This document shows positions 18,916 to 58,403 of a DNA stretch of 64,000 nucleotides, one piece after another (the first letter of the stretch is position 1; each line of letters begins with the position of its first letter). Position numbers and translations under genes: made by a program. The notes beneath the pieces are model-generated. The model ran no database searches and was not told where the DNA came from. It saw only the letters and a program-made list of their open reading frames with translations. The stretch lies in NCBI RefSeq assembly GCF_044324785.1, contig NZ_CP172127.1; one strand, given 5' to 3'. Source of the stretch: Escherichia coli (GTDB lineage: Bacteria; Pseudomonadota; Gammaproteobacteria; Enterobacterales; Enterobacteriaceae).

Positions 18916-20676
18916 ATGACGCAAACATTTATCCCCGGCAAAGATGCCGCTCTGGAAGATTCCATCGCTCGCTTCCAGCAAAAACTTTCAGACCTCGGTT
19001 TTCAGATTGAAGAGGCCTCCTGGCTGAATCCCGTGCCTAACGTCTGGTCTGTACATATTCGCGACAAAGAGTGCGCACTGTGTTTTACCAACGGTAAAGG
19101 CGCAACCAAGAAAGCGGCGCTGGCTTCTGCACTCGGTGAATATTTCGAGCGTCTCTCAACCAACTACTTTTTTGCTGATTTCTGGCTGGGCGAAACCATC
19201 GCCAACGGTCCATTTGTGCATTATCCCAACGAAAAATGGTTCCCACTGACCGAAAATGACGATGTGCCAGAAGGGCTGCTCGATGACCGTCTGCGCGCAT
19301 TTTACGATCCGGAGAATGAATTGACCGGCAGTATGCTGATTGACCTGCAATCTGGTAACGAAGATCGTGGTATTTGCGGCCTGCCGTTTACGCGTCAGTC
19401 CGACAATCAGATCGTTTATATTCCGATGAATATCATTGGTAACCTGTACGTTTCTAACGGTATGTCCGCTGGCAATACCCGCAACGAAGCACGCGTTCAG
19501 GGGTTGTCCGAAGTTTTCGAACGCTACGTGAAAAACCGCATTATTGCTGAAAGCATCAGCTTGCCGGAAATCCCGGCAGACGTGCTGGCGCGTTACCCAG
19601 CGGTGGTTGAAGCCATCGAAACGCTGGAAGCAGAAGGTTTCCCAATCTTTGCTTATGATGGTTCGCTTGGCGGCCAGTATCCGGTGATTTGCGTGGTACT
19701 GTTCAATCCTGCTAACGGTACCTGCTTTGCCTCTTTCGGTGCGCATCCTGATTTTGGCGTAGCACTGGAACGTACCGTGACCGAGCTGCTGCAAGGTCGT
19801 GGCCTGAAAGATTTGGATGTGTTTACTCCGCCAACCTTCGATGATGAAGAAGTTGCTGAACATACCAACCTCGAAACGCACTTTATCGATTCCAGCGGTT
19901 TAATCTCCTGGGACCTGTTCAAGCAGGATGCCGATTATCCGTTTGTGGACTGGAATTTCTCCGGCACTACGGAAGAAGAGTTTGCTACGCTGATGGCTAT
20001 CTTCAACAAAGAAGATAAAGAAGTTTATATTGCCGATTACGAGCATCTGGGCGTTTATGCTTGCCGTATTATTGTGCCTGGCATGTCCGATATTTATCCG
20101 GCTGAAGATCTGTGGCTGGCGAATAACAGTATGGGCAGCCATTTACGTGAAACGATTCTTTCGTTACCAGGCAGCGAGTGGGAAAAAGAAGATTACCTGA
20201 ACCTTATCGAGCAACTGGATGAAGAAGGTTTTGATGACTTTACTCGCGTGCGTGAGCTGTTGGGTCTGGCGACCGGGTCGGATAACGGTTGGTACACCCT
20301 GCGTATCGGAGAATTAAAAGCCATGCTGGCGCTGGCTGGTGGCGATCTGGAACAGGCTCTGGTCTGGACCGAATGGACGATGGAGTTTAACTCATCAGTA
20401 TTTAGTCCGGAACGCGCCAACTATTATCGCTGCCTGCAAACGTTGTTATTACTGGCGCAGGAAGAAGATCGCCAGCCGCTGCAATATCTGAATGCGTTTG
20501 TTCGCATGTACGGCGCAGATGCCGTGGAAGCCGCCAGTGCGGCAATGAGCGGCGAAGCGGCGTTTTATGGCTTGCAACCAGTAGATAGCGATCTGCACGC
20601 GTTTGCTGCACATCAGTCGTTGTTGAAGGCCTACGAAAAGCTGCAGCGCGCCAAAGCAGCATTCTGGGCAAAATAA
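18916..20676 (+). CDS. ycaO: YcaO-domain protein
   Basis: ORF 18883..20676; likely start at the internal MTQTFIPGKDAALEDS... Confidence 0.9.
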   Translation: MTQTFIPGKDAALEDSIARFQQKLSDLGFQIEEASWLNPVPNVWSVHIRDKECALCFTNGKGATKKAALASALGEYFERLSTNYFFADFWLGETIANGPFVHYPNEKWFPLTENDDVPEGLLDDRLRAFYDPENELTGSMLIDLQSGNEDRGICGLPFTRQSDNQIVYIPMNIIGNLYVSNGMSAGNTRNEARVQGLSEVFERYVKNRIIAESISLPEIPADVLARYPAVVEAIETLEAEGFPIFAYDGSLGGQYPVICVVLFNPANGTCFASFGAHPDFGVALERTVTELLQGRGLKDLDVFTPPTFDDEEVAEHTNLETHFIDSSGLISWDLFKQDADYPFVDWNFSGTTEEEFATLMAIFNKEDKEVYIADYEHLGVYACRIIVPGMSDIYPAEDLWLANNSMGSHLRETILSLPGSEWEKEDYLNLIEQLDEEGFDDFTRVRELLGLATGSDNGWYTLRIGELKAMLALAGGDLEQALVWTEWTMEFNSSVFSPERANYYRCLQTLLLLAQEEDRQPLQYLNAFVRMYGADAVEAASAAMSGEAAFYGLQPVDSDLHAFAAHQSLLKAYEKLQRAKAAFWAK

Positions 20677-21008
20677 AATCAAATAGCCTACGCAATGTAG
20701 GCTTAATGATTCGTCTGAGTTATATTACGGGGCGTTTTTTTAATGCCCCGCTTTACATATATTTGCATTAATAAAATAATTGTAATTATAAAGTTAAATA
20801 TCGGTAATTTGTATTTAATAAATACGATCGATATTGTTACTTTATTCGCCTGGTGCTCCCTTTTAATTAACTGTTTTAGCGGAGGATGCGGAAAAAATTC
20901 AACTCATTTGTTAATTTTTAAAATTTATTTTTATTTGGATAATCAAATATTTACTCCGTATTTGCATAAAAACCATGCGAGTTACGGGCCTATAAGCCAG
21001 GCGAGATA

Positions 21009-21036
21009 TGATCTATATCAATTTCTCATCTATAAT
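21009..21036 (+). promoter_or_regulatory. FNR-type site (TGATCTATATCAA) with a TATAAT -10 hexamer about 10 bp downstream, in the focA-pfl promoter region
   Basis: Near-consensus TTGAT-N4-ATCAA at 21009-21021; TATAAT at 21031-21036; lies in the AT-rich 20700-21080 interval upstream of focA. Confidence 0.6.
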
Positions 21037-21081
21037 GCTTTGTTAGTATCTCGTCGCCGACTTAATAAAGAGAGAGTTAGT

Positions 21082-21939
21082 GTGAAAGCTGACAACCCTT
21101 TTGATCTTTTACTTCCTGCAGCAATGGCCAAAGTGGCCGAAGAGGCAGGTGTCTATAAAGCAACGAAACATCCGCTTAAGACTTTCTATCTGGCGATTAC
21201 CGCCGGTGTTTTCATCTCAATCGCATTCGTCTTCTATATCACAGCAACCACTGGCACAGGAACAATGCCCTTCGGCATGGCAAAACTGGTTGGCGGCATT
21301 TGCTTCTCTCTGGGGCTGATTCTTTGTGTTGTCTGCGGAGCCGATCTCTTTACTTCCACAGTGTTGATTGTTGTTGCTAAGGCGAGTGGGCGCATCACCT
21401 GGGGTCAGTTGGCGAAAAACTGGCTAAATGTCTATTTTGGCAACCTGGTCGGCGCACTGCTGTTTGTACTTTTAATGTGGCTTTCCGGCGAGTATATGAC
21501 CGCGAATGGTCAATGGGGACTAAACGTTCTACAAACCGCCGACCACAAAGTGCACCATACTTTTATTGAGGCCGTCTGTCTTGGTATCCTGGCAAACCTG
21601 ATGGTATGTCTGGCAGTATGGATGAGTTATTCTGGCCGCAGCCTGATGGATAAAGCGTTCATTATGGTGCTGCCGGTCGCGATGTTTGTTGCCAGCGGTT
21701 TTGAGCACAGTATCGCAAACATGTTTATGATCCCGATGGGTATTGTAATCCGCGACTTCGCATCTCCGGAATTCTGGACCGCTGTCGGTTCTGCACCGGA
21801 AAATTTTTCTCACCTGACCGTGATGAACTTCATCACTGATAACCTGATTCCGGTTACGATCGGTAATATTATCGGCGGTGGTTTGTTGGTTGGGTTGACA
21901 TACTGGGTCATTTACCTGCGTGAAAACGATCACCATTAA
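21082..21939 (+). CDS. focA: Formate channel FocA
   Basis: Probable GTG start giving (V/M)KADNPFDLLLPAAMAK...; 285 aa. The track ORF from 20743 is an upstream over-extension. Confidence 0.9.
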   Translation: MKADNPFDLLLPAAMAKVAEEAGVYKATKHPLKTFYLAITAGVFISIAFVFYITATTGTGTMPFGMAKLVGGICFSLGLILCVVCGADLFTSTVLIVVAKASGRITWGQLAKNWLNVYFGNLVGALLFVLLMWLSGEYMTANGQWGLNVLQTADHKVHHTFIEAVCLGILANLMVCLAVWMSYSGRSLMDKAFIMVLPVAMFVASGFEHSIANMFMIPMGIVIRDFASPEFWTAVGSAPENFSHLTVMNFITDNLIPVTIGNIIGGGLLVGLTYWVIYLRENDHH

Positions 21940-21993
21940 TGGTTGTCGAAGTACGCAGTAAATAAAAAATCCACTTAAGAAGGTAGGTGTTAC

Positions 21994-24276
21994 ATGTCCG
22001 AGCTTAATGAAAAGTTAGCCACAGCCTGGGAAGGTTTTACCAAAGGTGACTGGCAGAATGAAGTAAACGTCCGTGACTTCATTCAGAAAAACTACACTCC
22101 GTACGAGGGTGACGAGTCCTTCCTGGCTGGCGCTACTGAAGCGACCACCACCCTGTGGGACAAAGTAATGGAAGGCGTTAAACTGGAAAACCGCACTCAC
22201 GCGCCAGTTGACTTTGACACCGCTGTTGCTTCCACCATCACCTCTCACGACGCTGGCTACATCAACAAAGCGTTGGAAAAAGTTGTTGGTCTGCAGACTG
22301 AAGCTCCGCTGAAACGTGCTCTTATCCCGTTCGGTGGTATCAAAATGATCGAAGGTTCCTGCAAAGCGTACAACCGCGAACTGGACCCGATGATCAAAAA
22401 AATCTTCACTGAATACCGTAAAACTCACAACCAGGGCGTGTTCGACGTTTACACTCCGGACATCCTGCGTTGCCGTAAATCCGGTGTTCTGACCGGTCTG
22501 CCAGATGCTTATGGCCGTGGTCGTATCATCGGTGACTACCGTCGCGTTGCGCTGTACGGTATCGACTACCTGATGAAAGACAAACTTGCACAGTTCACCT
22601 CTCTGCAGGCTGATCTGGAAAACGGCGTAAACCTGGAACAGACTATCCGTCTGCGCGAAGAAATCGCTGAACAGCACCGCGCTCTGGGTCAGATGAAAGA
22701 AATGGCTGCGAAATACGGCTACGACATCTCTGGTCCGGCTACCAACGCTCAGGAAGCTATCCAGTGGACTTACTTCGGCTACCTGGCTGCTGTTAAGTCT
22801 CAGAACGGTGCTGCAATGTCCTTCGGTCGTACCTCCACCTTCCTGGATGTGTACATCGAACGTGACCTGAAAGCTGGCAAGATCACCGAACAAGAAGCGC
22901 AGGAAATGGTTGACCACCTGGTCATGAAACTGCGTATGGTTCGCTTCCTGCGTACTCCGGAATACGATGAACTGTTCTCTGGCGACCCGATCTGGGCAAC
23001 CGAATCTATCGGTGGTATGGGCCTCGACGGTCGTACCCTGGTTACCAAAAACAGCTTCCGTTTCCTGAACACCCTGTACACCATGGGTCCGTCTCCGGAA
23101 CCGAACATGACCATTCTGTGGTCTGAAAAACTGCCGCTGAACTTCAAGAAATTCGCCGCTAAAGTGTCCATCGACACCTCTTCTCTGCAGTATGAGAACG
23201 ATGACCTGATGCGTCCGGACTTCAACAACGATGACTACGCTATCGCTTGCTGCGTAAGCCCGATGATCGTTGGTAAACAAATGCAGTTCTTCGGTGCGCG
23301 TGCAAACCTGGCGAAAACCATGCTGTACGCAATCAACGGTGGCGTTGACGAAAAACTGAAAATGCAGGTTGGTCCGAAGTCTGAACCGATCAAAGGCGAT
23401 CTCCTGAACTACGATGAAGTGATGGAGCGCATGGATCACTTCATGGACTGGCTGGCTAAACAGTACATCACTGCACTGAACATCATCCACTACATGCACG
23501 ACAAGTACAGCTACGAAGCCTCTCTGATGGCGCTGCACGACCGTGACGTTATCCGCACCATGGCGTGTGGTATCGCTGGTCTGTCCGTTGCTGCTGACTC
23601 CCTGTCTGCAATCAAATATGCGAAAGTTAAACCGATTCGTGACGAAGACGGTCTGGCTATCGACTTCGAAATCGAAGGCGAATACCCGCAGTTTGGTAAC
23701 AACGATCCGCGTGTAGATGACCTGGCTGTTGACCTGGTAGAACGTTTCATGAAGAAAATTCAGAAACTGCACACCTACCGTGACGCAATCCCGACTCAGT
23801 CTGTTCTGACCATCACTTCTAACGTTGTGTATGGTAAGAAAACTGGTAACACCCCAGACGGTCGTCGTGCTGGCGCGCCGTTCGGACCGGGTGCTAACCC
23901 GATGCACGGTCGTGACCAGAAAGGTGCTGTAGCGTCTCTGACTTCCGTTGCTAAACTGCCGTTTGCTTACGCTAAAGATGGTATCTCCTACACCTTCTCT
24001 ATCGTTCCGAACGCACTGGGTAAAGACGACGAAGTTCGTAAGACCAACCTGGCAGGTCTGATGGATGGTTACTTCCACCACGAAGCATCCATCGAAGGTG
24101 GTCAGCACCTGAACGTTAACGTGATGAACCGTGAAATGCTGCTCGACGCGATGGAAAACCCGGAAAAATATCCGCAGCTGACCATCCGTGTATCTGGCTA
24201 CGCAGTACGTTTCAACTCGCTGACTAAAGAACAGCAGCAGGACGTTATTACTCGTACCTTCACTCAATCTATGTAA
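21994..24276 (+). CDS. pflB: Pyruvate formate-lyase
   Basis: 760 aa, [39 protein letters not shown]...; glycyl-radical motif RVSGYAV near the C-terminus. Confidence 0.98.
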
Positions 24277-24346: not shown

Positions 24347-24467
24347 CACGAGAGCCTTTTTTGTCAGCTATCTATACTTTAATGTGACTGCCAAAACAGA
24401 CTCGACGTAGCCTTCGAGCTGCGCACCAACACGGCCTCAGATGGGCCACATCTGGAGAAACACCGCA

Positions 24468-25208
24468 ATGTCAGTTATTGGTCGCATTCACTCCTTTGAA
24501 TCCTGTGGAACCGTAGACGGCCCGGGTATTCGCTTTATCACCTTTTTCCAGGGCTGCCTGATGCGCTGCCTGTATTGTCATAACCGCGACACCTGGGATA
24601 CGCATGGCGGTAAAGAAGTTACCGTTGAAGATTTAATGAAGGAAGTGGTGACCTATCGCCACTTTATGAACGCTTCCGGCGGCGGCGTTACCGCATCCGG
24701 TGGTGAAGCAATCCTGCAAGCCGAGTTCGTTCGCGACTGGTTCCGCGCCTGCAAAAAAGAAGGCATTCATACCTGTCTGGACACTAACGGTTTTGTTCGT
24801 CGTTACGATCCAGTAATTGATGAACTTCTGGAAGTGACCGACCTGGTAATGCTCGATCTCAAACAGATGAACGACGAAATCCACCAGAATCTGGTAGGCG
24901 TTTCCAACCATCGTACACTCGAGTTTGCTAAATATCTGGCGAACAAAAATGTGAAAGTCTGGATACGTTATGTCGTAGTACCTGGCTGGTCTGACGATGA
25001 CGATTCAGCTCATCGCCTCGGTGAATTTACTCGCGATATGGGTAACGTCGAAAAAATCGAGCTCCTCCCCTACCATGAGTTAGGCAAACATAAGTGGGTG
25101 GCGATGGGCGAAGAGTACAAACTCGACGGTGTGAAACCACCGAAAAAAGAAACCATGGAGCGAGTGAAAGGGATTCTTGAGCAATATGGTCATAAAGTGA
25201 TGTTCTAA
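24468..25208 (+). CDS. pflA: Pyruvate formate-lyase activating enzyme (radical SAM)
   Basis: ORF 24441..25208; start at [20 protein letters not shown]; CxxxCxxC motif CLYCHNRD. Confidence 0.95.
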
Positions 25209-25342: not shown

Positions 25343-28300
25343 TTACCAGTCGGCGTAAGGTATCAGCGGCTGCGGCGGTAAATCCATGTCGCCCTGCCAT
25401 CCGGCGGCGGAATACCGCACGTAGAGCAGGAAATGGCTTGGCGCATAATCTTTCGCCTGCTGGATATCAATCGCCGTGCCGACAAACCAGTTGGACGTGA
25501 CGCGACGCTCAAGTAACGCCCGCGCCGTGTAGCCAAAGCCCTGACTGCTGCCGCCGTCGTTGGTCTGACTGGCGGCATCCTCTTTCCAGTCCGTCGGGAT
25601 CAGGTTCATCAGCGGATAACGCGGCATGGTTTTGGTGCGCGAATGCGACCACGAGCCAGACGCACCCAGCTCCCACGACCAGTTTTCCGTCCGCTCCCGC
25701 CACATCACCGGTATGGCAAACGACAGGTATTCCTGCGGGCTGTAGTAACCGCCCTGACCAAGTGAGTAGCCACTCAGGTCTTTGTCGTAATGCCAGATCA
25801 TATTGTTAAGACCAATGGTCACACGGCGATTATTCTGGTTGATGATCTTATAGTAATAGCCCGTCATCCAGCGCACGCGCCAGTTATCTTCGACATTTTT
25901 ACCGGTTAACTGGTCACCGCTAAGCGATGCCCAGACGCCGTTTGCTTCACCTTTATCGTAGCTCAGGCTTAGCCCCACGCCGTCGGCACGCACGCCGCCC
26001 CATTTTTTCCCGGTATTGCTCGGGGAGTCTTTTTGCCCGCCAAAGGCCAGCAAAGAACTGGAGATGGGCCGACGGTGGGCGTTAACGGTGTAACCCAGCG
26101 GCCCGATATCATCGCTGTAACTGATGCCGCCGACCACATCCACCACGTTGAAGCCCATCGGCGTGGTGCCGATATCCCAGCTCCAGACGTCATTTCGCCA
26201 GCCGACCGCCACGCTGGCACCGGAATCCGACTGGCTGCGGTTGCCGCTACAGTCCTGTAATGTACAGGTGCCCCAGTTGTCATCCCATTTGCCATCGGCA
26301 TTAGTGGAGAAACTGCCGACGTTCATATTGACGAAATCACTGCGAAAGAACATCCGCCCGTCAGAGTACGGCGCATCCACCTGCAACATGGTGGTGTGCG
26401 CTTTCAGATCGGAGTAACCACCGGTGCCGCTCGAACCCCAGTAATCGTGCTCGAGGGTGACGTTAAGATCCTGCTGGCGATAGAGGTCCGCTGCATCGCT
26501 GCGCACGCCGCGTTTCAGCCAGTCATCTTTCTCGTCGTTACGGGTCAGCCGGGTAAAGGTGTCGTTATCCTGCGGACGCGTCGTGGTCACACCGGATGCG
26601 ACCATCGCGTCTTTGTAGGTTTCCAGCGCCTGCGTTGGATCGCCCGCCTGCGCTTCAAACTTCGCACCGTCGCGCAGCACCATCGCGCTTTCCATCGACG
26701 GTGGCTGAGATTTTGCCTGCGGGATCAACTTATTAAACGTCTGCTGCGCCGCTGCGGTATCGCCAAGCTGCGCCTGCGCCAGCGCCACGCGCCGCTGAGT
26801 GTTCAGAGAGGCGTTATCAGTGGCGGGCAGTTTCGCCAGCTGGCTACGTGCCGCCGCTTTGTCACCGGCAGCAATATCCACTTCCGTCAGACCAAGAATG
26901 GCATCGGCGTTAGTTGGCTCCCGCGTCAGGACATTCTGATATGCAGCGCGAGCGGCGGTGTAATCACGTCGTTGTTGCGCCCAGTCAGCCAGCGTGAGGT
27001 CAATACGCGAGGAAGGCGGTTGCTGGCGCAGCATCGCTTCCGCTTCTGCCTCTTTGCCGCTTTCTCGCAGGCGATTAGCGGTTTCCAACACCTGATCGCT
27101 TTGCAGTCGATTAACCAGCTCCTGAATATTGCTGCTCCACTGCGCGCGCGGCAGGCTGTTGATATGCGCCAGCGCCGCTCTGTCCTGGTCATGACCAGAG
27201 AGATACAGCCCGTAAGCGTAAACCTGCTCCGGGTCGTTCGGCTTCTGCTGCGCCAGATTGCGCATTAACGTATCGGCCTGGCTGCGTTGTCCGGCCTGCC
27301 AGAGATCCTGTGAAAGTCGGTAAGTAATCCATACACTGCCGGGGTCCAGCGCCAGTCGCTGGCGCTGAAGTGCTGCTGCCTGCGCCCATTTGCCCTGTTT
27401 TTCCAGCGCTTCGGCCTGCTGTGACAAACGGTCATTTTGCAGGCTGCGTTCGATATCATCAATGCTACGCCGCTGACTGGCAGAGAGCGAGGCGATAAAC
27501 GCTTCAGCCTTTTCTGGCGATTGCTGGCGGTATATATTCGCCAGCCCGCGCACGGCGTTAGTGTTGCCGCTGTCCATACGCAAGGTCTGCTGATAATAAC
27601 GTTCGGCGGCGGGATAATCTTTTCGCGCCATCGCCACATCGCCCAGCCCCAGCACTGCATAGCTGTCGGTGTTATCGACATTACGCGCCTGCTGGAACAG
27701 GCGTTCTGCCCGGTCAGGATTATTGGCTTTCAGCGCAGCATCGCCCTGCTGGATCGCCAGCCAGTAGCGGTTTACTTTCAGGAGACTGTTCCATTTGTCG
27801 TTGTTGCTGCTGTGCGGATCCAGGGCGAGGGCTTTTTCCAGATTCGCCACCGCATTGGCGCGATCGCCTTTCTGAGAATACGCCTGGCCCAGCGCTCCAA
27901 ATATGGCACCAGAGTCAGGATTATCAATATTAAGTATTTTCAACTGACGAATCGCTTCGTTGCGACGGGAGGCAATTTGCGTCATTGCCCCCCAGTATTC
28001 CAGCGCCATTTCGATATCTGGCGGTGCACCGTTAAATAGCTTGTCGTAACTGTCGATAGCCTCTTTATGTCGCCCGGAGATAGCTTGTAAGCGTGCCATT
28101 TGCAGTGCCTGACGCCCCTCAGGCGAAGAAAGTCGCATGGCCGTGCGCGATGCTTTATATATTTTTGAATCAGGAGCGAGCAGGGAAAGTCTGGCAAGTT
28201 GTTTTTGCGCGCCTTCAATATCTCCCTTACGCAGCAGATAGCGAAAACGCGCCGCAACGACATCTGGATTATCAGGTTCCGCCAATTCAAGACGATAAAG

Positions 28301-28450
28301 CGACTGTTCGACCAGATCTTCACGATGAATGTCTTCGCCTAACCGAATCTGCGCCATTAACAGCTTGTGTGCAGTTGGTGTGGCTTTCGCCATCGACATT
28401 ACCGCCAAACCAAGGGATATTGTGAGTAAATTTAGGGTGAATTTGTACAT
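25343..28450 (-). CDS. BcsC-like exopolysaccharide export protein: N-terminal TPR repeats plus C-terminal outer-membrane beta-barrel
   Basis: 1035 aa; N-terminal signal peptide; long TPR-like repeat region; C-terminus rich in alternating aromatic/glycine strands and ending in W. Visibly more GC-rich than the genes upstream of it in the cluster. Confidence 0.8.
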   Translation of the reverse strand: MYKFTLNLLTISLGLAVMSMAKATPTAHKLLMAQIRLGEDIHREDLVEQSLYRLELAEPDNPDVVAARFRYLLRKGDIEGAQKQLARLSLLAPDSKIYKASRTAMRLSSPEGRQALQMARLQAISGRHKEAIDSYDKLFNGAPPDIEMALEYWGAMTQIASRRNEAIRQLKILNIDNPDSGAIFGALGQAYSQKGDRANAVANLEKALALDPHSSNNDKWNSLLKVNRYWLAIQQGDAALKANNPDRAERLFQQARNVDNTDSYAVLGLGDVAMARKDYPAAERYYQQTLRMDSGNTNAVRGLANIYRQQSPEKAEAFIASLSASQRRSIDDIERSLQNDRLSQQAEALEKQGKWAQAAALQRQRLALDPGSVWITYRLSQDLWQAGQRSQADTLMRNLAQQKPNDPEQVYAYGLYLSGHDQDRAALAHINSLPRAQWSSNIQELVNRLQSDQVLETANRLRESGKEAEAEAMLRQQPPSSRIDLTLADWAQQRRDYTAARAAYQNVLTREPTNADAILGLTEVDIAAGDKAAARSQLAKLPATDNASLNTQRRVALAQAQLGDTAAAQQTFNKLIPQAKSQPPSMESAMVLRDGAKFEAQAGDPTQALETYKDAMVASGVTTTRPQDNDTFTRLTRNDEKDDWLKRGVRSDAADLYRQQDLNVTLEHDYWGSSGTGGYSDLKAHTTMLQVDAPYSDGRMFFRSDFVNMNVGSFSTNADGKWDDNWGTCTLQDCSGNRSQSDSGASVAVGWRNDVWSWDIGTTPMGFNVVDVVGGISYSDDIGPLGYTVNAHRRPISSSLLAFGGQKDSPSNTGKKWGGVRADGVGLSLSYDKGEANGVWASLSGDQLTGKNVEDNWRVRWMTGYYYKIINQNNRRVTIGLNNMIWHYDKDLSGYSLGQGGYYSPQEYLSFAIPVMWRERTENWSWELGASGSWSHSRTKTMPRYPLMNLIPTDWKEDAASQTNDGGSSQGFGYTARALLERRVTSNWFVGTAIDIQQAKDYAPSHFLLYVRYSAAGWQGDMDLPPQPLIPYADW

Positions 28451-28562
28451 GCCTGCCTCAATCAGGTGTTAACTCACTTTTTATTAAAAACAGAACGGGC
28501 GCAGCTCCCTGCCTGTATAAAGTCAGGACAGAATGGAGCCGCAAAATAGAAATGATGATGAA

Positions 28563-29166
28563 TTACTGTTGATGAGGGTTCAGACGACGGCGACTAATGT
28601 TACGTAACAGACTCCATACTACCCACGCCAATAGCACCACACTGAGAGTTGCCAGCACTGCCAGTAGAATGGGATGTCTGGCTAACACATATTGCACTCG
28701 TTCAATCCAGGGGAGATGCCCAACGTAATAAGTATCTCCAACTCGTAAACTATTGATGCCAGATTCACGAATAACCGCGACTGAACCAAAAATATTGCCG
28801 CGTTTTGTACTATTAATTAACGCATTGTTGAGTAGCGTATCTCCGCGTGATCCCTCGGACATTAAAGCAATTACGCTGCGTTGGGTATGATATGGAGACT
28901 GAAAACCAACTATCGCCGCCATTGGCAATGGAGAATTTATAGTTGTTTGTATTTCAGGTTTTTGATCGTCGTTATCTGTCATAATTTTGGCGTAATCAGA
29001 GTGTCGTATTGGGCTTTTTACCCAACTTGTTGTTGCCTCAATGAGCAGATTAATTTGCTGATTGTCTGCAAATTCTTGCGGAAGTCTTCCTATTAACAGG
29101 ATATCTGAATCCTTGCCCTGGACAGAACCTATATCATCAGTAATTGTCAGATTAATTGCCGGAGAT
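28563..29166 (-). pseudogene. BcsB-like subunit, 3' fragment, separated from its 5' part by IS2
   Basis: Frame is open (no stops, checked codon by codon) from the IS2 junction at 29166 down to the stop at 28563; C-terminal TM anchor HPILLAVLATLSVVLLAWVVW...RRR typical of BcsB. In frame with the 5' fragment once IS2 and one GAGAT copy are removed. Confidence 0.8.
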
Positions 29167-29177
29167 TGGATTTGCCC

Positions 29178-30083
29178 CTATATTTCCAGACACCTGTTAT
29201 CACTTAACCCATTACTGGCCTGCTGCCGCAGATATTCCCGTGGCGAGCGATAACCCAGTGCACTATGCGGATGCCATTCGTTATAATGCTCGAACGCCTC
29301 TGCAAGGTTCTTTGCTGCCGTTAACCCGTCTGGTTTAGGCATGATACTGATGTAGTCACGCTTTATCGTTTTCACGAAGCTCTCTGCTATGCCGTTACTC
29401 TCCGGACTCCGCACCGCCGTGTTCTTCGGTTCAAGCCCCAACATCCGGGCAAACTGCCGTGTTTCATTAGCCCGGTAGCATGAACCATTATCCGTCAGCC
29501 ACTCTACTGGAGACGCCGGAAGCTCGTTGCCGAAGCGGCGTTCCACCGCTCCCAGCATTACGTCCTGTACTGTTTCACTGTCGAAGCCGCCCGTAGTGAC
29601 TGCCCAGTGCAGTGCCTCACGGTCACAGCAGTCCAGCGCGAACGTGACTCGCAGTTTTTCTCCGTTATCACAGCGGAACTCGAACCCGTCAGAGCACCAT
29701 CGTTGATTGCTTTCTTTCACGGCCACTTTGCCAGTATGTGCCCGTTTCGATGGCGGTACAGCGGTTTTTCGCTCAAGCAACAGCGCATTCTGGCGCATGA
29801 TCCGGTAAACACGTTTGGCATTGATCGCAGGCATACCATCAAGTTCGGCCTGTCTGCGAAGCAGCGCCCATACCCGACGATAACCATACGTGGGCAGCTC
29901 TCCGATAACATGGTGTATACGGAGAAGCACATCCGTATCATCTGAGTGACGGCTGCGGCGACCATCTTTCCAGTCATCGGTTCGTCTGAGAATTACGTGC
30001 AACTGCGCACGCGACACCCGGAGACAACGGCTGACTAAGCTTACTCCCCATCCCCGGGCAATAAGGGCGCGTGCGCTATCCAC
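29178..30083 (-). CDS. insD: IS2 transposase OrfB (InsD; DDE integrase domain)
   Basis: 301-aa [33 protein letters not shown]...; overlaps orfA near a T6/A6G slippery run at about 30084-30090. Confidence 0.9.
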
Positions 30084-30406
30084 TTTTTTGCACGCCCGTA
30101 TTCAACGGCTTCTTTAAGGAGTTCATTTTCCATCGTTTTTTTGCCGAGCAGGCGCTGGAGTTCTTTAATCTGCTTCATGGCAGCAGCAAGTTCAGAGGCA
30201 GGAACGACCTGCTCTCCTGCGGCCACAGCAGTAAGACTTCCCTCCTGGTATTGCTTGCGCCAGAGAAATAACTGGCTGGCTGCCACACCGTGTTGCCGGG
30301 CAACAAGGGAGACCGTCATTCCCGGTTCAAAACTCTGCTGAACAATAGCGATCTTTTCCTGTGTAGTACGCCGTCTGCGTTTCTCCGGTCCTAAGACATC
30401 AATCAT
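30041..30406 (-). CDS. insC: IS2 OrfA (InsC; helix-turn-helix)
   Basis: [40 protein letters not shown]... Confidence 0.9.
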
Positions 30407-30497
30407 CTGCTCTCCAATGACTAGTCTAAAAACTAGTATTAAGACTATCACTTATTTAAGTGATATTGGTTGTCTGGAGATTCAGGGGGCCAGTCTA

Positions 30498-32199
30498 GAG
30501 ATCCAGTTTGAGCACCAATCAGTCCAAGGGTATTTAATAATGTTTCAACTTGCGTTGTGCCAGGATTTTCAGGCATAACCACAACCGTTTCTGATAGATC
30601 GGCCATGCGGCTAAATGGAAAGCCTGAGCTGGCAAAAGCGCGTAAATCTGGCATTGCGATAAAGTGATGGTACTTTGAAAAATCGATAGTGGAATCATCT
30701 GCAATAACCGCATGATTTTTTAGCGACCGGGAAATAATACAGCTATCGGCATCAGAGCGCGGCATTGTATTAACGTACTCAAAATTAAATCGCAATTGAT
30801 TAAGCGCCCCTAACGTCAGCGCAGGAATGTTAATTTCATTATTACCATCCAACAATTCTTGCAATAACGGTAAACGTAACAATAACCTATCAGTAGCAGA
30901 TTGCGGACTCAGCCGGAAAGATTCAAGGTACTGGTTATTAAGGCTGACATCCATGCGTGAACCACCTATCGTTGGCGTGGTATAACGATAGTTAATCTTC
31001 ATCTCACCCCCACGATTACGCAATAGAAAGAGATCAGGTGGCAAATTAAATGAAACATTAATTGCCGCAGACTCCAGGGCACTTGCCTGTAACTGCCCTT
31101 CATAATTTTTAAGCTCTGCGAAAGTTACAGGACGATCAGTGCGTATCCAGTTTGGCGCATCATAAGGTTTACGCGGCAGTAACGGCTTCACGTCATTTAC
31201 GACCACGCTATCGCCGCGAAATAATATATTTCCCTGTGCAAGGCCTTTTGCCGCCTGTAATAAATCTTTATCATCGCGGCCCAAAAGTACCAGCAATTTG
31301 ACAAAGGGATTTTGTGGATGACTGATCATTTTAATAACAGGCGCATTCACCAACGGATGCTCGCGCAGAAAGTCTGGGCGTCTATTGTTCGTGGCAAAGA
31401 CTACTGCATTACTTTCCGGTAACTGGTTATAGAAAACCGGAAATCGGTGACCACGCCAGCCAGATTGCGAACCAAACCACGAAGCGACAATAGCTGATAC
31501 CTGCTGCAAACCAGTCCCAGGAGTACCGGCAAAAACCATCGGCAATGTATTAGGGCGGTTATCTCGCGGATCAAAGAACGGTACAGGAAGATATGAAAGA
31601 TCATTTTTCAAATTGAGTCTCTGAACTACCAGTTCAAGTTCACTGGTACGTCCAATATCAAGCCACAAATTGCCGCTGGTCGGGTTTTCGCAGGCGCTCT
31701 GGTAGTGACTAATTAATTCTAGGCGCAAGCGATTAAAATCCGAAAAATACAATGGGTTAAGAGTTATTTCCGCCAGCGTTTTCTTCCCCAGTTGTTCTTT
31801 GGTAATCGGCAATACCTCCATCAACTCGTCATTAAGATAGACCTTAAGCTGTGACTGGACCGGGATCAGCGACGGTGATGGAGTGTATTCAAGTTTTAGT
31901 TTCGCTTCTGACACTATTTCATCGCTACGCATACCAAACTCAATTTGCCCCTGTGGGTTAACTCCATTCAGGACTATGTTTCCTGGCGCTGGTGCGATTT
32001 GTGTAAATGGGAGTTTAAAATAGCGAGATGGCTCTTTCACATAAGCAGAGATATTTTCTTTCGGGATAGCGGGTAATACTCCGACTGAGGAAGGCTTATG
32101 AATTACTGTATCTGTAGCCGATGCTGTATTTGCCTGGTAAAAACATAGTAACCCCAAGCCAATTATTGCAGCACTTAATCTCAAAAATTTTCTTTCCAT
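30498..32199 (-). pseudogene. BcsB-like periplasmic subunit, 5' fragment, truncated by the IS2 insertion
   Basis: ORF 30448..32220 reads into IS2; probable start MERKFLRLSAAIIGLGLLCFYQANTASA (signal peptide); BcsB-like blocks such as EFGMRSDE and LKVYLNDELMEVLP. Confidence 0.8.
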
Positions 32200-32258
32200 T
32201 TTAAAAAATTCAACAACCATAATAAATACAAATAATATATTTAATTAGCAATCAGAAA

Positions 32259-34379
32259 TTAGAACTGACTTTTAGAACTGCCTTTCAGTGTCCGGAGAAT
32301 ATAAAAAACCATATTGCAATAACCTTTCAGAGAGATAAAACATATTTCAATAAAACTCTTTAAAATATTGTCTCGTTTAATTTTATCATTCCACTCTTGC
32401 CATAGTGAATCACGAGAAAACGTTGCTCTGACATAATTAACATTTTGTTCATGACTCATTGGCATAATCTTCAGACCAATTTTATTATTGTAGGCATGAA
32501 CTATTTCTACCGGTATATCACACTTTCCGTTACTATCATCCAGATAAAGAGACAACCGCTGTGTTTTAACAATATTTTTTACGTCGGAGATATTATCAAG
32601 GATAACGCCTAATCCTCCTTCGGAAAAATCAAGAACAGAACAAGGATAGCTCCGTCCATCTTCCAGTTGTATAACGCCCTTGAAAGAAACATCAATACGG
32701 GGAGAAAAACGCACCTGCTTTTGTTCAATAGAAACAGCCAAAGTTGCGCCAATAATAATTGTATTATAAAACAGCCAAATCAAACAAAAAAAATTCAGGA
32801 TGGCGATATGCCCTTGCAAACTATAAACATTAACAATACCTATTATCAGTCCAATTACATTTAAAATGGCAAAAATAAGATAGGGGTAGGAAATTCGCCA
32901 GTCAACAAACTTATTTTTTATCAGCCCTCCTTTGGCCGTAACGTTGAAACGCCCTTTTGCTGGTGCAAGTAAAGCTACAAGAGTTGGTAGCGTAATATAC
33001 CAAGCCAGAACCATTTCATAAATCTCATTCCAGAATGAATGTCTGTATTTACCCTGTACTCTTGAATTAGTTAAAATAATAACAAATAAATAAGGTAAAA
33101 CATAAGACATAATATCTGCAACCGATGCTTCGATCAGGTTGACCGAAAAGAAAATAGGACATAACGGTGCGAACAAGAAAATCAGTCGTGGCACACCTGA
33201 TAAAAAATGCATCATGCTGCTGAGATAGCAAAGGCGCTGTGATAATGTCAGCCCCTTGCCCAATAATGGATTGTCAATACGCAAGATTTGAATCATGCCT
33301 CGAGCCCATCGAATCCGTTGTCCAATATGAGCAGACAATGTTTCTGTGGCTAGCCCGGCAGCCAGAGGATAGCGAAGATATGCAGAGCTATAACCTGCAC
33401 GATGCAAGCGTAACGACGTATGCGCATCTTCAGTTACTGTTTCGACTGCAATGCCTCCAACCTCATCCAGAGCAGATCTACGGATGATTGCACATGAACC
33501 ACAAAAAAATGAAGCATTCCATGTATCCGTACCATTCTGGATTAACCCATAAAAAAGGTGTCCTTCATTTGGCTTTTGCCGAAACTGCCCCAAATTTCGC
33601 TCAAAAGGATCGGGGGAAAAAAAATGATGTGGTGTTTGCAACATCGATAATTTTTTATCTGCAATAAACCAGCCCATCGTTTTCTTTAAAAAAGATACCG
33701 AGGGTATATGATCGCAATCGAAAATAGCAACAAATTCGCCATTAGCTATTTTAAGCGCATTATTTATATTTCCGGCCTTAGCATGTTCATGTGTTTCTCT
33801 TGCGACATAGTAAATTCCTGACTCGTTCGCAAATTTCCTGAACTCATCCCTGGCGCCATCATCAAGGATCCAGATATGTAATTTATCCTTTGGCCAGTCT
33901 AAAGCCAACGCACCATAAACTGTATTCTTCACGACTGTAAAAGGTTCGTTATATGTGGGTATTAATATATCTACGATGGGCCATTCTTCTTTATTCTCTG
34001 GTAAAGGTATACTTTCTCTGTTCAGCGGGAAGCAAACCTGAAAGTAACCAAGTAATAAAACAAACCAAGCATACGTTTCAGCAGTTAATAACGTGACTGA
34101 AAATAAGCAGTCTGGAAATTCATTCAGGATGACTGAAGAAGAGTACCGCCACCATAGATATCGGGATGAGATGAGTATTCCAACACCCATTAATATCAGG
34201 GTAATCATCCTTCCCTTGAACAAATTAAGGAAAATGACAGCGATGCAAATAATAATTGAAAATAATATTTGTTGATAAAATCCAAGTGGCTGCTCAACAA
34301 TTGATAAAAAGACAAAACATAGCAATATAGCAACAACCAAAAGGATTTTGTTTAATATTTCTTTATTTTTTAAGATCAT
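32259..34379 (-). CDS. BcsA-type processive family-2 glycosyltransferase (cellulose-synthase-like) with C-terminal PilZ c-di-GMP receptor domain
   Basis: 706 aa; DDG, DCD, TED and QRIRW catalytic motifs; FFCGS; gating-loop FNVTAK; PilZ RFSPR (RxxxR) and DFSEGG (DxSxxG); multiple TM helices. Very AT-rich DNA. Confidence 0.85.
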   Translation of the reverse strand: MILKNKEILNKILLVVAILLCFVFLSIVEQPLGFYQQILFSIIICIAVIFLNLFKGRMITLILMGVGILISSRYLWWRYSSSVILNEFPDCLFSVTLLTAETYAWFVLLLGYFQVCFPLNRESIPLPENKEEWPIVDILIPTYNEPFTVVKNTVYGALALDWPKDKLHIWILDDGARDEFRKFANESGIYYVARETHEHAKAGNINNALKIANGEFVAIFDCDHIPSVSFLKKTMGWFIADKKLSMLQTPHHFFSPDPFERNLGQFRQKPNEGHLFYGLIQNGTDTWNASFFCGSCAIIRRSALDEVGGIAVETVTEDAHTSLRLHRAGYSSAYLRYPLAAGLATETLSAHIGQRIRWARGMIQILRIDNPLLGKGLTLSQRLCYLSSMMHFLSGVPRLIFLFAPLCPIFFSVNLIEASVADIMSYVLPYLFVIILTNSRVQGKYRHSFWNEIYEMVLAWYITLPTLVALLAPAKGRFNVTAKGGLIKNKFVDWRISYPYLIFAILNVIGLIIGIVNVYSLQGHIAILNFFCLIWLFYNTIIIGATLAVSIEQKQVRFSPRIDVSFKGVIQLEDGRSYPCSVLDFSEGGLGVILDNISDVKNIVKTQRLSLYLDDSNGKCDIPVEIVHAYNNKIGLKIMPMSHEQNVNYVRATFSRDSLWQEWNDKIKRDNILKSFIEICFISLKGYCNMVFYILRTLKGSSKSQF

Positions 34380-34463
34380 TATACTTAGCGATTCATTAAC
34401 AATACAGCTTGAATAGTGTGATTTTTATAAACATTGATGACCAATGCCATGCAAATTTAAATA

Positions 34464-35795
34464 TCAACACCACGTTATCTGTGCTCTGCCATTTTGCTTA
34501 CTTTTGTATAACCGTTCATCTGCCAGCAATTTCAACCGTTCAATGTTATTCATGCACTCATCTGTACTGGCAACTCCTATGCTGCAACTACAATTTAACC
34601 CACCGATTGCGAAATGAACAACTCTGTGCAAAATTCTTGATAGTTTATTTTTATCTTTCTCATAATAAATAATAGCAAACTCATCACCGCCAAACCGGTA
34701 TATTTCCCCTTCACGACGGGGTAACTCATCTTTAATAAGGTTAACAAGTTTGATGAGTACTTCATCACCAAACAGATGGCCAAACTTATCATTAATGGTT
34801 TTAAATTTATCCACATCAAATAGACACAGGTAGCCAAAATTCTTGCTCAGCATCTTGATTTCCTTATCAAAACTCCGACGACCAGAAGCCCGAGTTAATG
34901 CATCACAAGTGCCAAAGTCATATATCTCTCGAATTGCATTAATCTCTTCCGTATTAAAGAATAGATTTTCTCCACATAAATCATATTGATGATTCGATAA
35001 TATAGATTCTTTTTCCAATCTACCCTTATTTATAATATTTCGTAGTAATTTAATATAATAAACATACAGTATAACTGCAGATATTGCCGATGCAAAAACG
35101 AATAGCATACATATATAGAGATATTTACTTTTTTTATAGGCAACAATAAACATCATTTCTGGAAGGTAAGAATACGACAGAGTGATAGCTGACATCTCAA
35201 ATACAGCATCATTTATCAAAAAATCATCACCTGTGATTTTCTTTTCATTATCATTAATATCATAAAATGAGATATAGATATCTTCTCGTTCCCCTGACTG
35301 ATTTCTAATCAAAGATAAATAACGTTCAGGATCTACCACTGATATCAAAATTGTTCGTTTGGCAATGGGATGAGCATAATAAACATAGTACTTATCTTTT
35401 AAACCAATAACACCTCTCTCAAATTCGTTCATTACTCGAATAGAGGAAACTATGTCGCCACAAAAATCATCCCCTTTCGTTGTAACTTTGATACATTTAC
35501 CATCGCTAATAATATAAGGACCGAGATCATACAAATATCCAGGATTTTCATAGCCAGCAAAGCTATTGCGTATTTTTTTTACCAATTCTTCTGGGGCAAT
35601 ATCTAGTTCATAAAATATATCATTAGATACTGAGCGGCGATACTCAGAAACATTAGCTATTGCAAGCCCACTATCTACAATAGATACCTTCACCGAATTA
35701 ATGCGGCCCTTAACATAAATGGTGTATAAATAACAAGTTACTACAGCGACGAACAAAAAACAGATTACTGCCGCCTTTTTCTTATATTTGAACAT
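34464..35795 (-). CDS. Membrane-bound diguanylate cyclase (two TM helices flanking a periplasmic sensor, then GGDEF)
   Basis: 443 aa; intact RFGGDEF active-site motif; no RxxD I-site five residues upstream; about 200-aa periplasmic region containing a Cys pair. Confidence 0.8.
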   Translation of the reverse strand: MFKYKKKAAVICFLFVAVVTCYLYTIYVKGRINSVKVSIVDSGLAIANVSEYRRSVSNDIFYELDIAPEELVKKIRNSFAGYENPGYLYDLGPYIISDGKCIKVTTKGDDFCGDIVSSIRVMNEFERGVIGLKDKYYVYYAHPIAKRTILISVVDPERYLSLIRNQSGEREDIYISFYDINDNEKKITGDDFLINDAVFEMSAITLSYSYLPEMMFIVAYKKSKYLYICMLFVFASAISAVILYVYYIKLLRNIINKGRLEKESILSNHQYDLCGENLFFNTEEINAIREIYDFGTCDALTRASGRRSFDKEIKMLSKNFGYLCLFDVDKFKTINDKFGHLFGDEVLIKLVNLIKDELPRREGEIYRFGGDEFAIIYYEKDKNKLSRILHRVVHFAIGGLNCSCSIGVASTDECMNNIERLKLLADERLYKSKQNGRAQITWC

Positions 35796-35799
35796 TGCT

Positions 35800-38148
35800 T
35801 TATTTTCTTTTTTTCGGTTTGCTGTCTATATGCCATTCTGAAAACGGTAGCGGTTTCTGGTATAAGTATCCCTGAACATGAGAGAATCCTAATTTTTGCA
35901 ATTCTCTGGCCTGACTTTCAGTTTCAACACCTTCAGCTATTACCGGCATATTTTCTTCACGAGCAAGGCTGGATATAAAGTACACAATTTTGTTAGTTTC
36001 GTTGAAAATACCAGAGGTAAACTCTGAATCAATTTTAATACTATCAGGTCTTACTTTATAAAGTTTTTTCAGGTCAGCTAATCCACTACCGAAATCATCA
36101 AGAGAAATCTTGATACCGTTTTCTTTTAAAATGTTTATATTATTGTAAAAGCTATCATTTATATCTTTTACTGCTGACTCGGTGATCTCCAGACAGATTT
36201 GTTCAGCATTTACATCAAATGCATTAATTAAAGTAAGAACACGAGTGTGGAAGTCAATTTCATTTAATTGCCATGGAGAAACATTGATATGCAGGAGAAA
36301 ATCGTTAGCAACCTCATATTCACGGCTAAAGGCACCAAATTCGCTAATAGCCGTTTCGAGAATAAAATCACCCAGTTCTTTAATTAATCCTATTTCTTCA
36401 GCAACAGGTACAAAAATTGATGGCGGTATTGCCCCATTTTCGACGGATAACCAGCGGCATAACGCCTCAGCACCGACAACCCTATTATTATCCATATCAA
36501 CAATCGGTTGATATACTAAATAAAGTTCACTACTCAAAATCGCTTTTTTTATATTTCCTGCCACCCAGACCTTTTGATCAAGTTCATGAACTTTGATATC
36601 ATCATAAAACATAAATTCAGATTCTTTATTTTCCCGCATAGCTGTTAATGCCAGTTTCAACTTCCCTTCATAAATCGAAACATTTTCCCCTGAAAAAGTT
36701 TCACAAATGGCAATCTTATGAATATAAATATTTCTTATGCAAAATATATGTTCAGGGAAGTTTAAAACAGATAATCTTTCGATGAACTCTTCGCAGTGCG
36801 TGTGGCACAGCAACAAGTATGTTTCAGTTGAGAATTTTACGATATCACAATATTTTGAATATTTTTGTGAAATCTTCGATTTTATATCATTAACAATTTC
36901 ATAAAATTTCTGACTTCCATATATCGCCTCAACAAACTCTAATCCATAGATGCAAAGCATACCAACTGCCAAATAGGTTTTATTATTAGTTTCAATAACA
37001 GCCTTATTAATATAGAAACAACTTCCTTGTTCATAGGACACAAGATTAAGTAAACGGTCCATACGCTCCTTGTATTTATCACTGATATTATTAATGATTT
37101 TTTTGAGTTCAACAATTTCGCTACTATCATTTTGCACAATATCAATTGTGTCATTGCGATATACTGAGTTAGCTAATTTTTTCAGATGTTCTATTAGTTT
37201 ACTGGATTCTCGTTTAATTTTTTTTGTTATATTTTCAACGATATACCATAATAAACAGAAACAAACCAAGCCACATAAAAACATCAATGTAAAATATTTA
37301 TTGATGTTTGCATCTTCTGCTTTTTGATAGTAAAAGTAATGGAATCTGACATCAGGAAGCCTGGGGAGTGAGATAATATTGTCTGTATAGTTTCCACTAT
37401 TATTACTTATGTTATAACTTCCCGATGACTCACGGACAATAAGATGTAACATTGATTTTTCATTACCTACCATTATCCTTTTATTTTGTTCCATGAATAG
37501 AATATCAGCATCACTACCTAGTTTATTTAAAAAATTACTGAAATATTTTTCATCAAGATCCAGATGCATTAACTTCAGAGCAAATGAATCTTTTTCTTCT
37601 TCGGATGGCCGTAGTGAAAACGAAAAACATTTTTTTCCGGCAATACCATAACAATTATACCATGGTGACCATTTTGAATAAGTCCCTGCCGGTAATTTAT
37701 TCCAGGGGCGTGATTCCGGGTTAAAGTAGTTATCGCTAATATTACCATCGTCCCCAATAAAAGGTTTGCCGGCTTCTGATTTCCCCAGGAATTTTACCTC
37801 ACCATCCTCAGTTCGAATAAAGCTAAGATAGTTTCCATTATTGAGCATTATCCCTACTAAATTAACAGCGTCTATTTTTTTCATGCGATGAAGGACTGCT
37901 CGCTTTATTTCACCTTCATCATTTAACAGATAAATTGCATCTTTTAATGCATCAGCCTCTTTTTCAACTTTAGAAAAAAAATTATTCAAATTGTTATTGA
38001 TGAGTATAAGGTTAATCCGTGAAGAGTTTTCTGCTATTTTTTTATGGAAGTCAATTGCGGTAATAAATGAAAAGACAATATAGACAGTAACAGCTAATAT
38101 AACCGCAGTGTTAAATCTTGAGTTTAATTTTTCGGTAATGCTATACAT
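35800..38148 (-). CDS. Membrane-bound c-di-GMP phosphodiesterase (periplasmic sensor, degenerate GGDEF-like linker, EAL)
   Basis: 782 aa; EAL-domain residues present (GAEALCRW, QICLEITES, ISLDDFGSG, IKIDSEF, AEGVETE, VQGYLYQKP); no GGDEF motif in the middle domain; two TM helices flank a roughly 250-aa periplasmic region. Confidence 0.8.
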   Translation of the reverse strand: MYSITEKLNSRFNTAVILAVTVYIVFSFITAIDFHKKIAENSSRINLILINNNLNNFFSKVEKEADALKDAIYLLNDEGEIKRAVLHRMKKIDAVNLVGIMLNNGNYLSFIRTEDGEVKFLGKSEAGKPFIGDDGNISDNYFNPESRPWNKLPAGTYSKWSPWYNCYGIAGKKCFSFSLRPSEEEKDSFALKLMHLDLDEKYFSNFLNKLGSDADILFMEQNKRIMVGNEKSMLHLIVRESSGSYNISNNSGNYTDNIISLPRLPDVRFHYFYYQKAEDANINKYFTLMFLCGLVCFCLLWYIVENITKKIKRESSKLIEHLKKLANSVYRNDTIDIVQNDSSEIVELKKIINNISDKYKERMDRLLNLVSYEQGSCFYINKAVIETNNKTYLAVGMLCIYGLEFVEAIYGSQKFYEIVNDIKSKISQKYSKYCDIVKFSTETYLLLCHTHCEEFIERLSVLNFPEHIFCIRNIYIHKIAICETFSGENVSIYEGKLKLALTAMRENKESEFMFYDDIKVHELDQKVWVAGNIKKAILSSELYLVYQPIVDMDNNRVVGAEALCRWLSVENGAIPPSIFVPVAEEIGLIKELGDFILETAISEFGAFSREYEVANDFLLHINVSPWQLNEIDFHTRVLTLINAFDVNAEQICLEITESAVKDINDSFYNNINILKENGIKISLDDFGSGLADLKKLYKVRPDSIKIDSEFTSGIFNETNKIVYFISSLAREENMPVIAEGVETESQARELQKLGFSHVQGYLYQKPLPFSEWHIDSKPKKRK

Positions 38149-39247
38149 ACTGGTGTTCTGACTAAAATGTTATCAATAGCTTTAATATAAGATCGTATAA
38201 AGTTCTGTATATTAGCCGATGTTACCCTCCTCTTTATGACTTTCTTAATTTCATTATCCCCATATAACAAATATGTCATGATGAGAAGATTAATTTTTTC
38301 TTAATTTCCACAAGTGATTATCATGCTTCTTATTTTAACCAGAACAATATTGTTATATGTAACACTCATCTTTGTATCTTTCACCCACGCTACCGCCTTT
38401 CGTTAATCATTCAACGAAATAATTTAGATATGAAAAAATTACCCTGTAACAACACAACTAGCACATCCTGCCGAGTTGTGACATCTACTCTATAATTATC
38501 CAAAAGAGGTATTAGTATCTATTGTCAGTAATCCATTCTGTTTATTTATCTTATTTAAGACATGTGTAATACGACTCTCTTAGCCCAAATATATTAATCA
38601 GTAACTTTAAAGTAAGATTTAGTCAGAAAGTGATCGTGAAAATTTCACTGCCCAGGCTGTAATTTGTCCATCAACCTAACAGATAAATATTTTCAGGAAC
38701 ACACGTTCGATAAAACAATAGATGCAACATTAGAGCACTATTTTATTTTTAAAACAAAAGACTGTGAACTACACCAGGCATGAGAAGATTCTGTCGTGAG
38801 ATGATTTTTTCCAGATTAAAACACTATAAAATATAACTTTTACAGAATATTACGCCAGTAAATCAATATGCCATCTGCATATTCAAACAATAACTGCAAT
38901 CATTCTCAGCAAATTTAACCATAATTAGCAACGTGCAAATTCATTGATGCAGATCAAAAATCCGAGTTTACATTACCAATCTTTGTTGAAAATTTAGCCG
39001 TAAAAATCATGTTATTACTATACGCAAGAGTTTACTCCAGAGCCCAAAATAATAACTTGCAAAATAACCAATAATTAAAACTATCACCATATCTAAAAAT
39101 AAAGGTCTCCGATAACTAAAATTCGTATTATCACGGTAGCGTTGATATTCTTCCATCTCTTAAGAAAAACTTAACTTTTACCCTATCAGGCCTGATCTAA
39201 TTTTAAACTATTTGATATCATAGCCCCGGCGAACCGGGGCATGATGA

Positions 39248-40678: not shown

Positions 40679-40887
40679 AGACAAATCCTTCGCCAAAATT
40701 AAAGGGGCATCTGTAAAACGAGGGATTATGCGCGGCAAATAAGAAGTGCGGAAATAGCGAAATGCAAAATTATAACCTGCTGCACATTTTATTTTGAAAC
40801 GAATAAAATTTGGAAAAAAGCAAGTCAGAGAGAAGAAACAGAAAAGCAGAGTGTGAAACAGTAAGTTCACACTCTGCGTTAATTCAT

Positions 40888-58376: not shown

Positions 58377-58403
58377 TTTTACAAATCAGTAACAAAAGTA
58401 AAG

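Follow-up and report, generated by a model that had tools for sequence, protein, structure and literature searches.

The ycaO-focA spacer of an Escherichia coli chromosome as the known focA-pflB regulatory region, with an FNR site that probably serves the extended -10 of promoter P6

The window, by which we mean the whole 64-kb stretch of DNA that was analysed, belongs to an Escherichia coli chromosome; its segment 20600-21200, lying between ycaO and focA, recurs at 100% identity in many complete E. coli genomes, and the genes follow one another in the order ycaO-focA-pflB-pflA, as they do in K-12. The ycaO stop codon ends at 20676 and the focA GTG stands at 21082, which fixes the bounds of the spacer between them:

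20677..21081, + strand: ycaO-focA intergenic region, 405 bp, 31.1% G+C, 402/405 identical to K-12 MG1655

Alignment of the spacer with that of K-12 MG1655 is gap-free and leaves three base differences (20712 C/A, 20792 A/G, 20853 G/A), and nothing suggests that these make a functional difference. The likeness to the K-12 focA-pflB region thus comprises the locus, the gene order and 402 of the 405 spacer bases, and it extends to the individual elements: no base differs in the FNR 14-mer, the -10 elements or the IHF core, and the ArcA site is arranged alike. That K-12 region is the pfl region with promoters P6 and P7 and with FNR, ArcA and IHF on which Sawers and co-workers have worked. An earlier reading of the sequence (hereafter the original prediction) had placed an AT-rich regulatory region of the focA-pflB operon at 20700-21081. 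Its assignment is borne out by the near-identity to K-12 and by the same flanking genes, and so is the base composition, with 30.9% G+C over that interval versus 48.9% for the whole window; just 2.8% of 382-bp windows are as low in G+C, and most of these come from an unrelated low-GC island at 32-39 kb. Of its coordinates the end stands, at the base before the focA GTG, and the start does not, the true spacer beginning at 20677, directly after the ycaO stop.

Elsewhere in the window, a low-GC accessory cluster (25343-38157, - strand) is found between pflA (24441-25208) and ycaM (39257-40687), where K-12 has ycaK and ycaN. In the best-matching genome this cluster is annotated with bcsC, bcsB and bcsA (a second cellulose-synthase-like set), a GGDEF protein and a sensor phosphodiesterase. 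Only 9 of 5,426 complete E. coli genomes match at least 80% of the length of segment 31000-40000, which takes in part of the cluster together with ycaM; strain N3 (NZ_CP031609.1) alone does so at 99% identity or more.

What is contributed here are the sequence features of the spacer, their statistical support, their geometry and their conservation; FNR and ArcA occupancy, the two mapped starts and FNR activation are published K-12 data, not data from this strain, and concern an FNR 14-mer identical to the one here and an ArcA site with one base changed (20792). Published coordinates were converted as window position = 21082 - (U00096.2 coordinate - 953689). To assess conservation, we used a degenerate DNA pattern for FocA residues 14-23, which matched 110 species loci in about 45 Enterobacterales genera; the 103 loci with enough upstream sequence entered the comparison of FNR sites. 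An Rfam search of 20300-22300 found no RNA family.

The left edge of the spacer belongs to its neighbour, the first ~75 nt (20677-20751) being hairpins and terminator of the ycaO 3' end and not focA control sequence:

20685..20703, + strand: hairpin 1 after the ycaO stop (AGCCTAC-gcaat-GTAGGCT); folding, with a T-rich tail on the - strand
20728..20750, + strand: hairpin 2, CGGGGCGTT-ttttt-AATGCCCCG, probable ycaO intrinsic terminator; folding and compensatory changes

Both hairpins fold well (z about -4.9), and hairpin 1 is poorly conserved between genera. Hairpin 2 is probably the intrinsic terminator of ycaO, because its stem carries compensatory substitutions in other genera and is followed there by a clean T-run. 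Directly 5' of this stem, outside both the hairpin and the coding sequence, the motif (G)CTATATTAC (20718-20727) is kept across genera. An antisense small RNA running from a - strand TATAAT (20790-20785) to the terminator-like - strand hairpin at 20703-20685 was considered and rejected, neither element being conserved between genera.

Downstream of the terminator lie an ArcA-P site and two blocks that resemble ArcA half-sites:

20769..20822, + strand: ArcA-P multi-direct-repeat site; published ChIP-seq site, matrix score, conservation
20834..20871, + strand: two conserved blocks, TTGTTACTTT and TTTAATTAAC, resembling ArcA half-sites; conservation

The larger of these corresponds to a ChIP-seq peak and four-repeat site reported at 953949-954002 (Park et al. 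2013, PMC3798270). A scan for ArcA had been proposed along with the original prediction, and with a matrix built from 114 other boxes of the same study it yields, as the best 18-bp box, TTGTAATTATAAAGTTAA at 20780-20797 (16.8 bits, rank 2 in the window), a score that is reached by 1% of spacer shuffles. At least two TGTTA-type repeats with 11-bp spacing thus accompany a significant box score. Three repeats with this 11-bp phasing are conserved in the anchored sequences of other genera, and 81 of 93 species have their best ArcA match 215-229 nt ahead of the FNR site. Position 20792, which is A here and G in MG1655, lies within the box and leaves its score essentially unchanged (16.76 versus 16.58 bits); both bases occur at the equivalent position in other genera. 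The highest ArcA-box score of the window belongs to TTGTTACTGATTTGTAAA (58378-58395, - strand, 20.0 bits), which is identical to the cydD box listed by Park et al. (2013, PMC3798270) and therefore places cydDC near the right end of the window. A further ArcA ChIP peak, a weak one at 953546 (window ~21225, inside focA), is listed by the same authors with no predicted ArcA box.

Between the ArcA repeats and the FNR site, and partly overlapping the former, are an IHF core, candidate elements of promoter 7 and two blocks of conserved sequence:

20752..20780, + strand: distal sigma-70 promoter-like site TTTACA-17-AATAAT (10/12), candidate promoter 7; scan
20898..20934, + strand: deeply conserved element TTCAAC...TTTAAAATTTATTTTTAT; constant, gap-free spacing to the FNR site
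20941..20953, + strand: IHF core consensus AATCAAATATTTA (WATCAANNNNTTR), after an A/T tract; consensus match, conservation
20986..21007, + strand: G+C-rich conserved block GGGCCTATAAGCCAGGCGAGAT, abutting the FNR site; conservation

The IHF scan that had been proposed with the original prediction thus finds a core at 20941-20953, though at least one WATCAANNNNTTR core turns up in 5.8% of spacer shuffles, so that the match is weak by itself in such AT-rich DNA. A match to the core keeps a constant 67 nt to the FNR site in 56 of 93 species, and the evidence from sequence alone is moderate. Sirko and colleagues reportedly published an IHF footprint in 1993. Over the FNR site itself, no IHF ChIP-chip enrichment is listed (Myers et al. 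2013, PMC3688515).

Where, then, might promoter 7 be located? Two sigma-70 ChIP-seq peaks flank the region, at window positions ~21076 and ~20739 (954032), and both rise ~6-7-fold without oxygen. The distal site at 20752-20780 is near the second of these, and its TTTACA and AATAAT hexamers are those of a 'constitutive promoter' from RpoD SELEX (Shimada et al. 2014); the hexamers are not conserved outside Escherichia. A second candidate -10 is TAAAAT (20919-20924), inside the deeply conserved element. Both remain candidates for promoter 7, conservation favouring no decision between them. Blocks 20898-20934 and 20986-21007 keep gap-free, fixed distances to the FNR site over dozens of genera and form part of a conserved, gap-free arrangement that covers ~110 bp upstream of that site. 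Either of them could in principle serve as operator for a regulator so far undescribed at focA-pflB, which we regard as unlikely; they may simply represent the core promoter of P7, or a site for ArcA or NarL that has already been footprinted. If such a regulator did exist, it might be, for example, the unidentified component of pyruvate induction. Visual inspection of ~20955-21003 for a second class II FNR promoter and for a sigma-54 promoter led to the rejection of both, as the defining bases are absent.

The proximal part of the spacer holds the FNR site and two -10 elements downstream of it:

21008..21021, strand not assigned: FNR site ATGATCTATATCAA, centre 21014.5; consensus, matrix, ChIP-seq, conservation
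21031..21036, + strand: TATAAT, -10 of an overlapping promoter; start mapped at 21045 (953726)
21041..21049, + strand: extended -10 TGtTAGTAT of P6; spacing to the FNR centre, conservation

The original prediction of a near-consensus FNR site upstream of focA holds. The sequence TGATCTATATCAA is located at 21009-21021, within the 14-mer ATGATCTATATCAA, which agrees with TTGAT-N4-ATCAA at 9 of 10 positions (one mismatch). Could this be a functionless chance match of the kind that AT-rich sequence throws up? In favour of chance, simple counting of the consensus with at most one mismatch gives 5 matches in the 64 kb where 3.1 are expected, which is not above chance and is uninformative; therefore, a position weight matrix was built from 62 other ChIP-seq-bound sites (Table S6 of Myers et al. 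2013, PMC3688515), the focA site being left out. With this matrix the 14-mer scores 16.3 bits and ranks second in the 64 kb, 0.155 matches of that score are expected per shuffled 64-kb window, and when the 405-bp spacer is shuffled with its dinucleotides preserved, just 0.2% of the shuffles do as well. No second FNR-like site above 3 bits was found within the spacer by the matrix scan; two motifs were counted under the focA FNR peak in K-12 (Myers et al. 2013, PMC3688515). In the published list the same 14-mer appears as its reverse complement at 953750, with a PatSer of 14.37 and an ln p of -12.86 (cut-off -10.75), and it sits under an FNR ChIP-seq peak with its summit at 953741 (window 21030), 15 bp away from the centre of the site (Myers et al. 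2013, PMC3688515). Failure to score in a matrix scan had been named beforehand as what would refute the FNR claim, and the claim therefore survives, on our score as on the published one.

Conservation speaks against chance as well. The best FNR-matrix match reads RTGAT-N4-RTCAA and is centred 64-72 nt from the start codon (mode 67, as in E. coli) in 102 of 103 species, so that the half-sites stay invariant at a fixed distance from the start codon while the spacer between them varies. Nearly all substitutions among the 103 species fall in the central four bases and, as A/G exchanges, at half-site positions 1 and 10, the pattern that would be expected of a dyad contacted by protein. A chance origin of the 14-mer is accordingly hardly credible. 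The top FNR score of the window (18.75 bits) goes to a perfect consensus, TTGATGCAGATCAA, at 38944-38957, situated in a low-GC spacer of 1.1 kb that precedes the accessory cluster's phosphodiesterase gene, ~790 bp from the start of that gene. In K-12, the ChIP-bound sites at ylcI/nohB and yjiV have this sequence, and the one at nohA/ynfO has its reverse complement.

Which of the two -10 elements serves FNR? The original prediction had the FNR site followed by TATAAT, which is indeed present, and implied that TATAAT is the -10 of the anaerobic promoter. Its appeal is plain, since it is a perfect -10 that begins 9 nt past the FNR site, is kept at +23 from that site in 84 of 103 species (with TATACT in another 11 and loss in about 6) and precedes a mapped start, at 953726 or window 21045 (Kim et al. 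2012, PMC3415461). In the genome-wide start-site data examined, this was the only focA start, with none at 21055. The geometry, however, tells against such a role. A class II promoter needs ~32 bp between the centre of the site and that of the -10, whereas here the two centres are only 19 bp apart. Measured from 21045, the FNR centre would stand at about -30.5 and the -35 position of the TATAAT promoter (ATGATC, 21008-21013) falls inside the FNR site, an arrangement that suits repression or occlusion rather than class II activation. By comparison, 19 of 23 FNR-activated promoters with a known start have their site at -41.5 +/- 4, and focA-pflB is itself classed as directly FNR-activated, its best motif being placed at -40.5 relative to the start in the catalogue (Myers et al. 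2013, PMC3688515). The K-12 entries in a supplementary expression table are focA 0.15, pflB 0.21 and pflA 0.34. Comparison with the mapped pfl starts, also proposed beforehand, gives 21045 for TATAAT and, by calculation from the FNR position of -40.5, 21055 for the FNR-dependent promoter.

The extended -10 fits where TATAAT does not. The hexamer TAGTAT (21044-21049) is preceded by TG at 21041-21042, which makes it an extended -10 with a predicted +1 at 21056 and puts the FNR centre at -41.5; the P6 start at 21055, which was back-calculated from the -40.5 of Myers et al. (2013, PMC3688515) and not taken from primary mapping, puts it at -40.5. A near-consensus dyad with a significant matrix score hence stands near -41.5 from a start taken from the literature, with a -10 about 32 bp downstream of its centre, and the -35 position of P6 reads ATTTCT, with no recognisable -35. 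When the sequences are anchored on the FNR site, TG is found at +33 in all 103 species, and at +36 TAGTAT is found in 95 and TAnnAT in 102 of them. The most distant genera have unrelated sequence in place of TATAAT but retain the FNR site and TGnTAGTAT at fixed spacing. Activation by FNR through TATAAT is, on balance, improbable. Class II geometry (-41.5) and conservation together point to TGtTAGTAT (21041-21049), and not the adjacent TATAAT, as the -10 that the FNR-dependent promoter P6 would use; TATAAT is still a working -10, with its own mapped start at 21045. A further start at 953131 (window 21640, inside focA) was assigned to pflB (Kim et al. 2012, PMC3415461) and is consistent with internal pfl promoters or processing sites of the operon.

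The remaining question concerns the beginning of focA itself, around which two further features matter:

20743..21081, + strand: in-frame focA extension of 113 codons, not coding; ORF list, frame closed elsewhere
21070..21084, + strand: Shine-Dalgarno-like GAGAGAG, then the focA GTG (21082-21084); conservation, annotation

Were the ATG at 20743 the true start, FocA would carry a 113-residue N-terminal extension. The frame is in fact open in the window for 121 codons upstream of the GTG, and the open reading frame 20743-21939 encodes 398 aa. Its residues 114-398, however, are identical to the 285-aa FocA of PDB 3kcu, and both the solved FocA structures and the RefSeq annotation begin at the GTG, just as the original prediction had assumed in calling the frame from 20743 an artefactual upstream extension. 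A GTG start with a protein of 285 aa is also what the other loci favour: the position of the start codon is GTG in nearly all of the 110, the GAGAGAG ribosome site is conserved with it, and the upstream frame closes within 2-79 codons of the GTG in 97 of 97 other species. In addition, starts 21045 and 21055 are both downstream of 20743, and the extension would be a low-complexity peptide of AT-rich codons. A start at 20743 can therefore be all but dismissed.

Taken together, we put at roughly 0.93 the probability that the interval is the known E. coli focA-pflB (formate channel/pyruvate formate-lyase) regulatory region, activated by FNR via the extended -10 of P6. In the mechanism that we propose, [4Fe-4S]-FNR dimers would bind ATGATCTATATCAA (21008-21021) when oxygen is absent. 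Centred ~41.5 bp upstream of the P6 start (21055/21056), they would recruit RNA polymerase, by class II activation, to a promoter that has the extended -10 TGtTAGTAT and, with ATTTCT, no usable -35. At the same time, bound FNR should occlude the overlapping TATAAT promoter (start 21045) while activating P6, because the -35 position of the former falls inside the FNR site. Kaiser and Sawers are said to have spoken in 1997 of 'overlapping promoters' at P6, which agrees with such occlusion. Further upstream, the ArcA-P array and the IHF core, held at fixed distances, would account for that part of anaerobic induction which depends on ArcA and IHF, probably via a complex of bent DNA and protein, in which IHF would do the bending, and via the upstream promoter P7.

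How does this arrangement compare with related systems? With class II FNR promoters such as narG, dmsA and yfiD (site at -41.5), focA shares a dyad at -40.5/-41.5, the want of a recognisable -35 and, in K-12 data, an anaerobic rise in sigma-70 occupancy; it differs from them in having an extended -10 (TGn) with a non-canonical TAGTAT, and a second, overlapping TATAAT promoter whose -35 position is in the FNR site. With ArcA-P operators it has in common three to four TGTTA-like repeats whose centres are 11 bp apart (Park et al. 2013, PMC3798270), but whereas most of these operators repress by overlapping the promoter, ArcA at focA is reported to be an activator, by a mechanism that is unknown.

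The control region of focA-pflB is already known, well studied and oxygen-responsive, and it is a textbook case of combined control by FNR, ArcA and IHF. It sets the levels of pyruvate formate-lyase and of the formate channel when oxygen runs out. When E. coli evolves in the mouse gut, IS elements insert repeatedly in the ycaO-focA spacer; these insertions increase focA expression under anaerobic conditions and are under positive selection (PMC5094792). To this picture the present comparison adds a refinement: over about 45 genera, the FNR site goes with the extended -10 TGnTAGTAT and not with the more eye-catching TATAAT.
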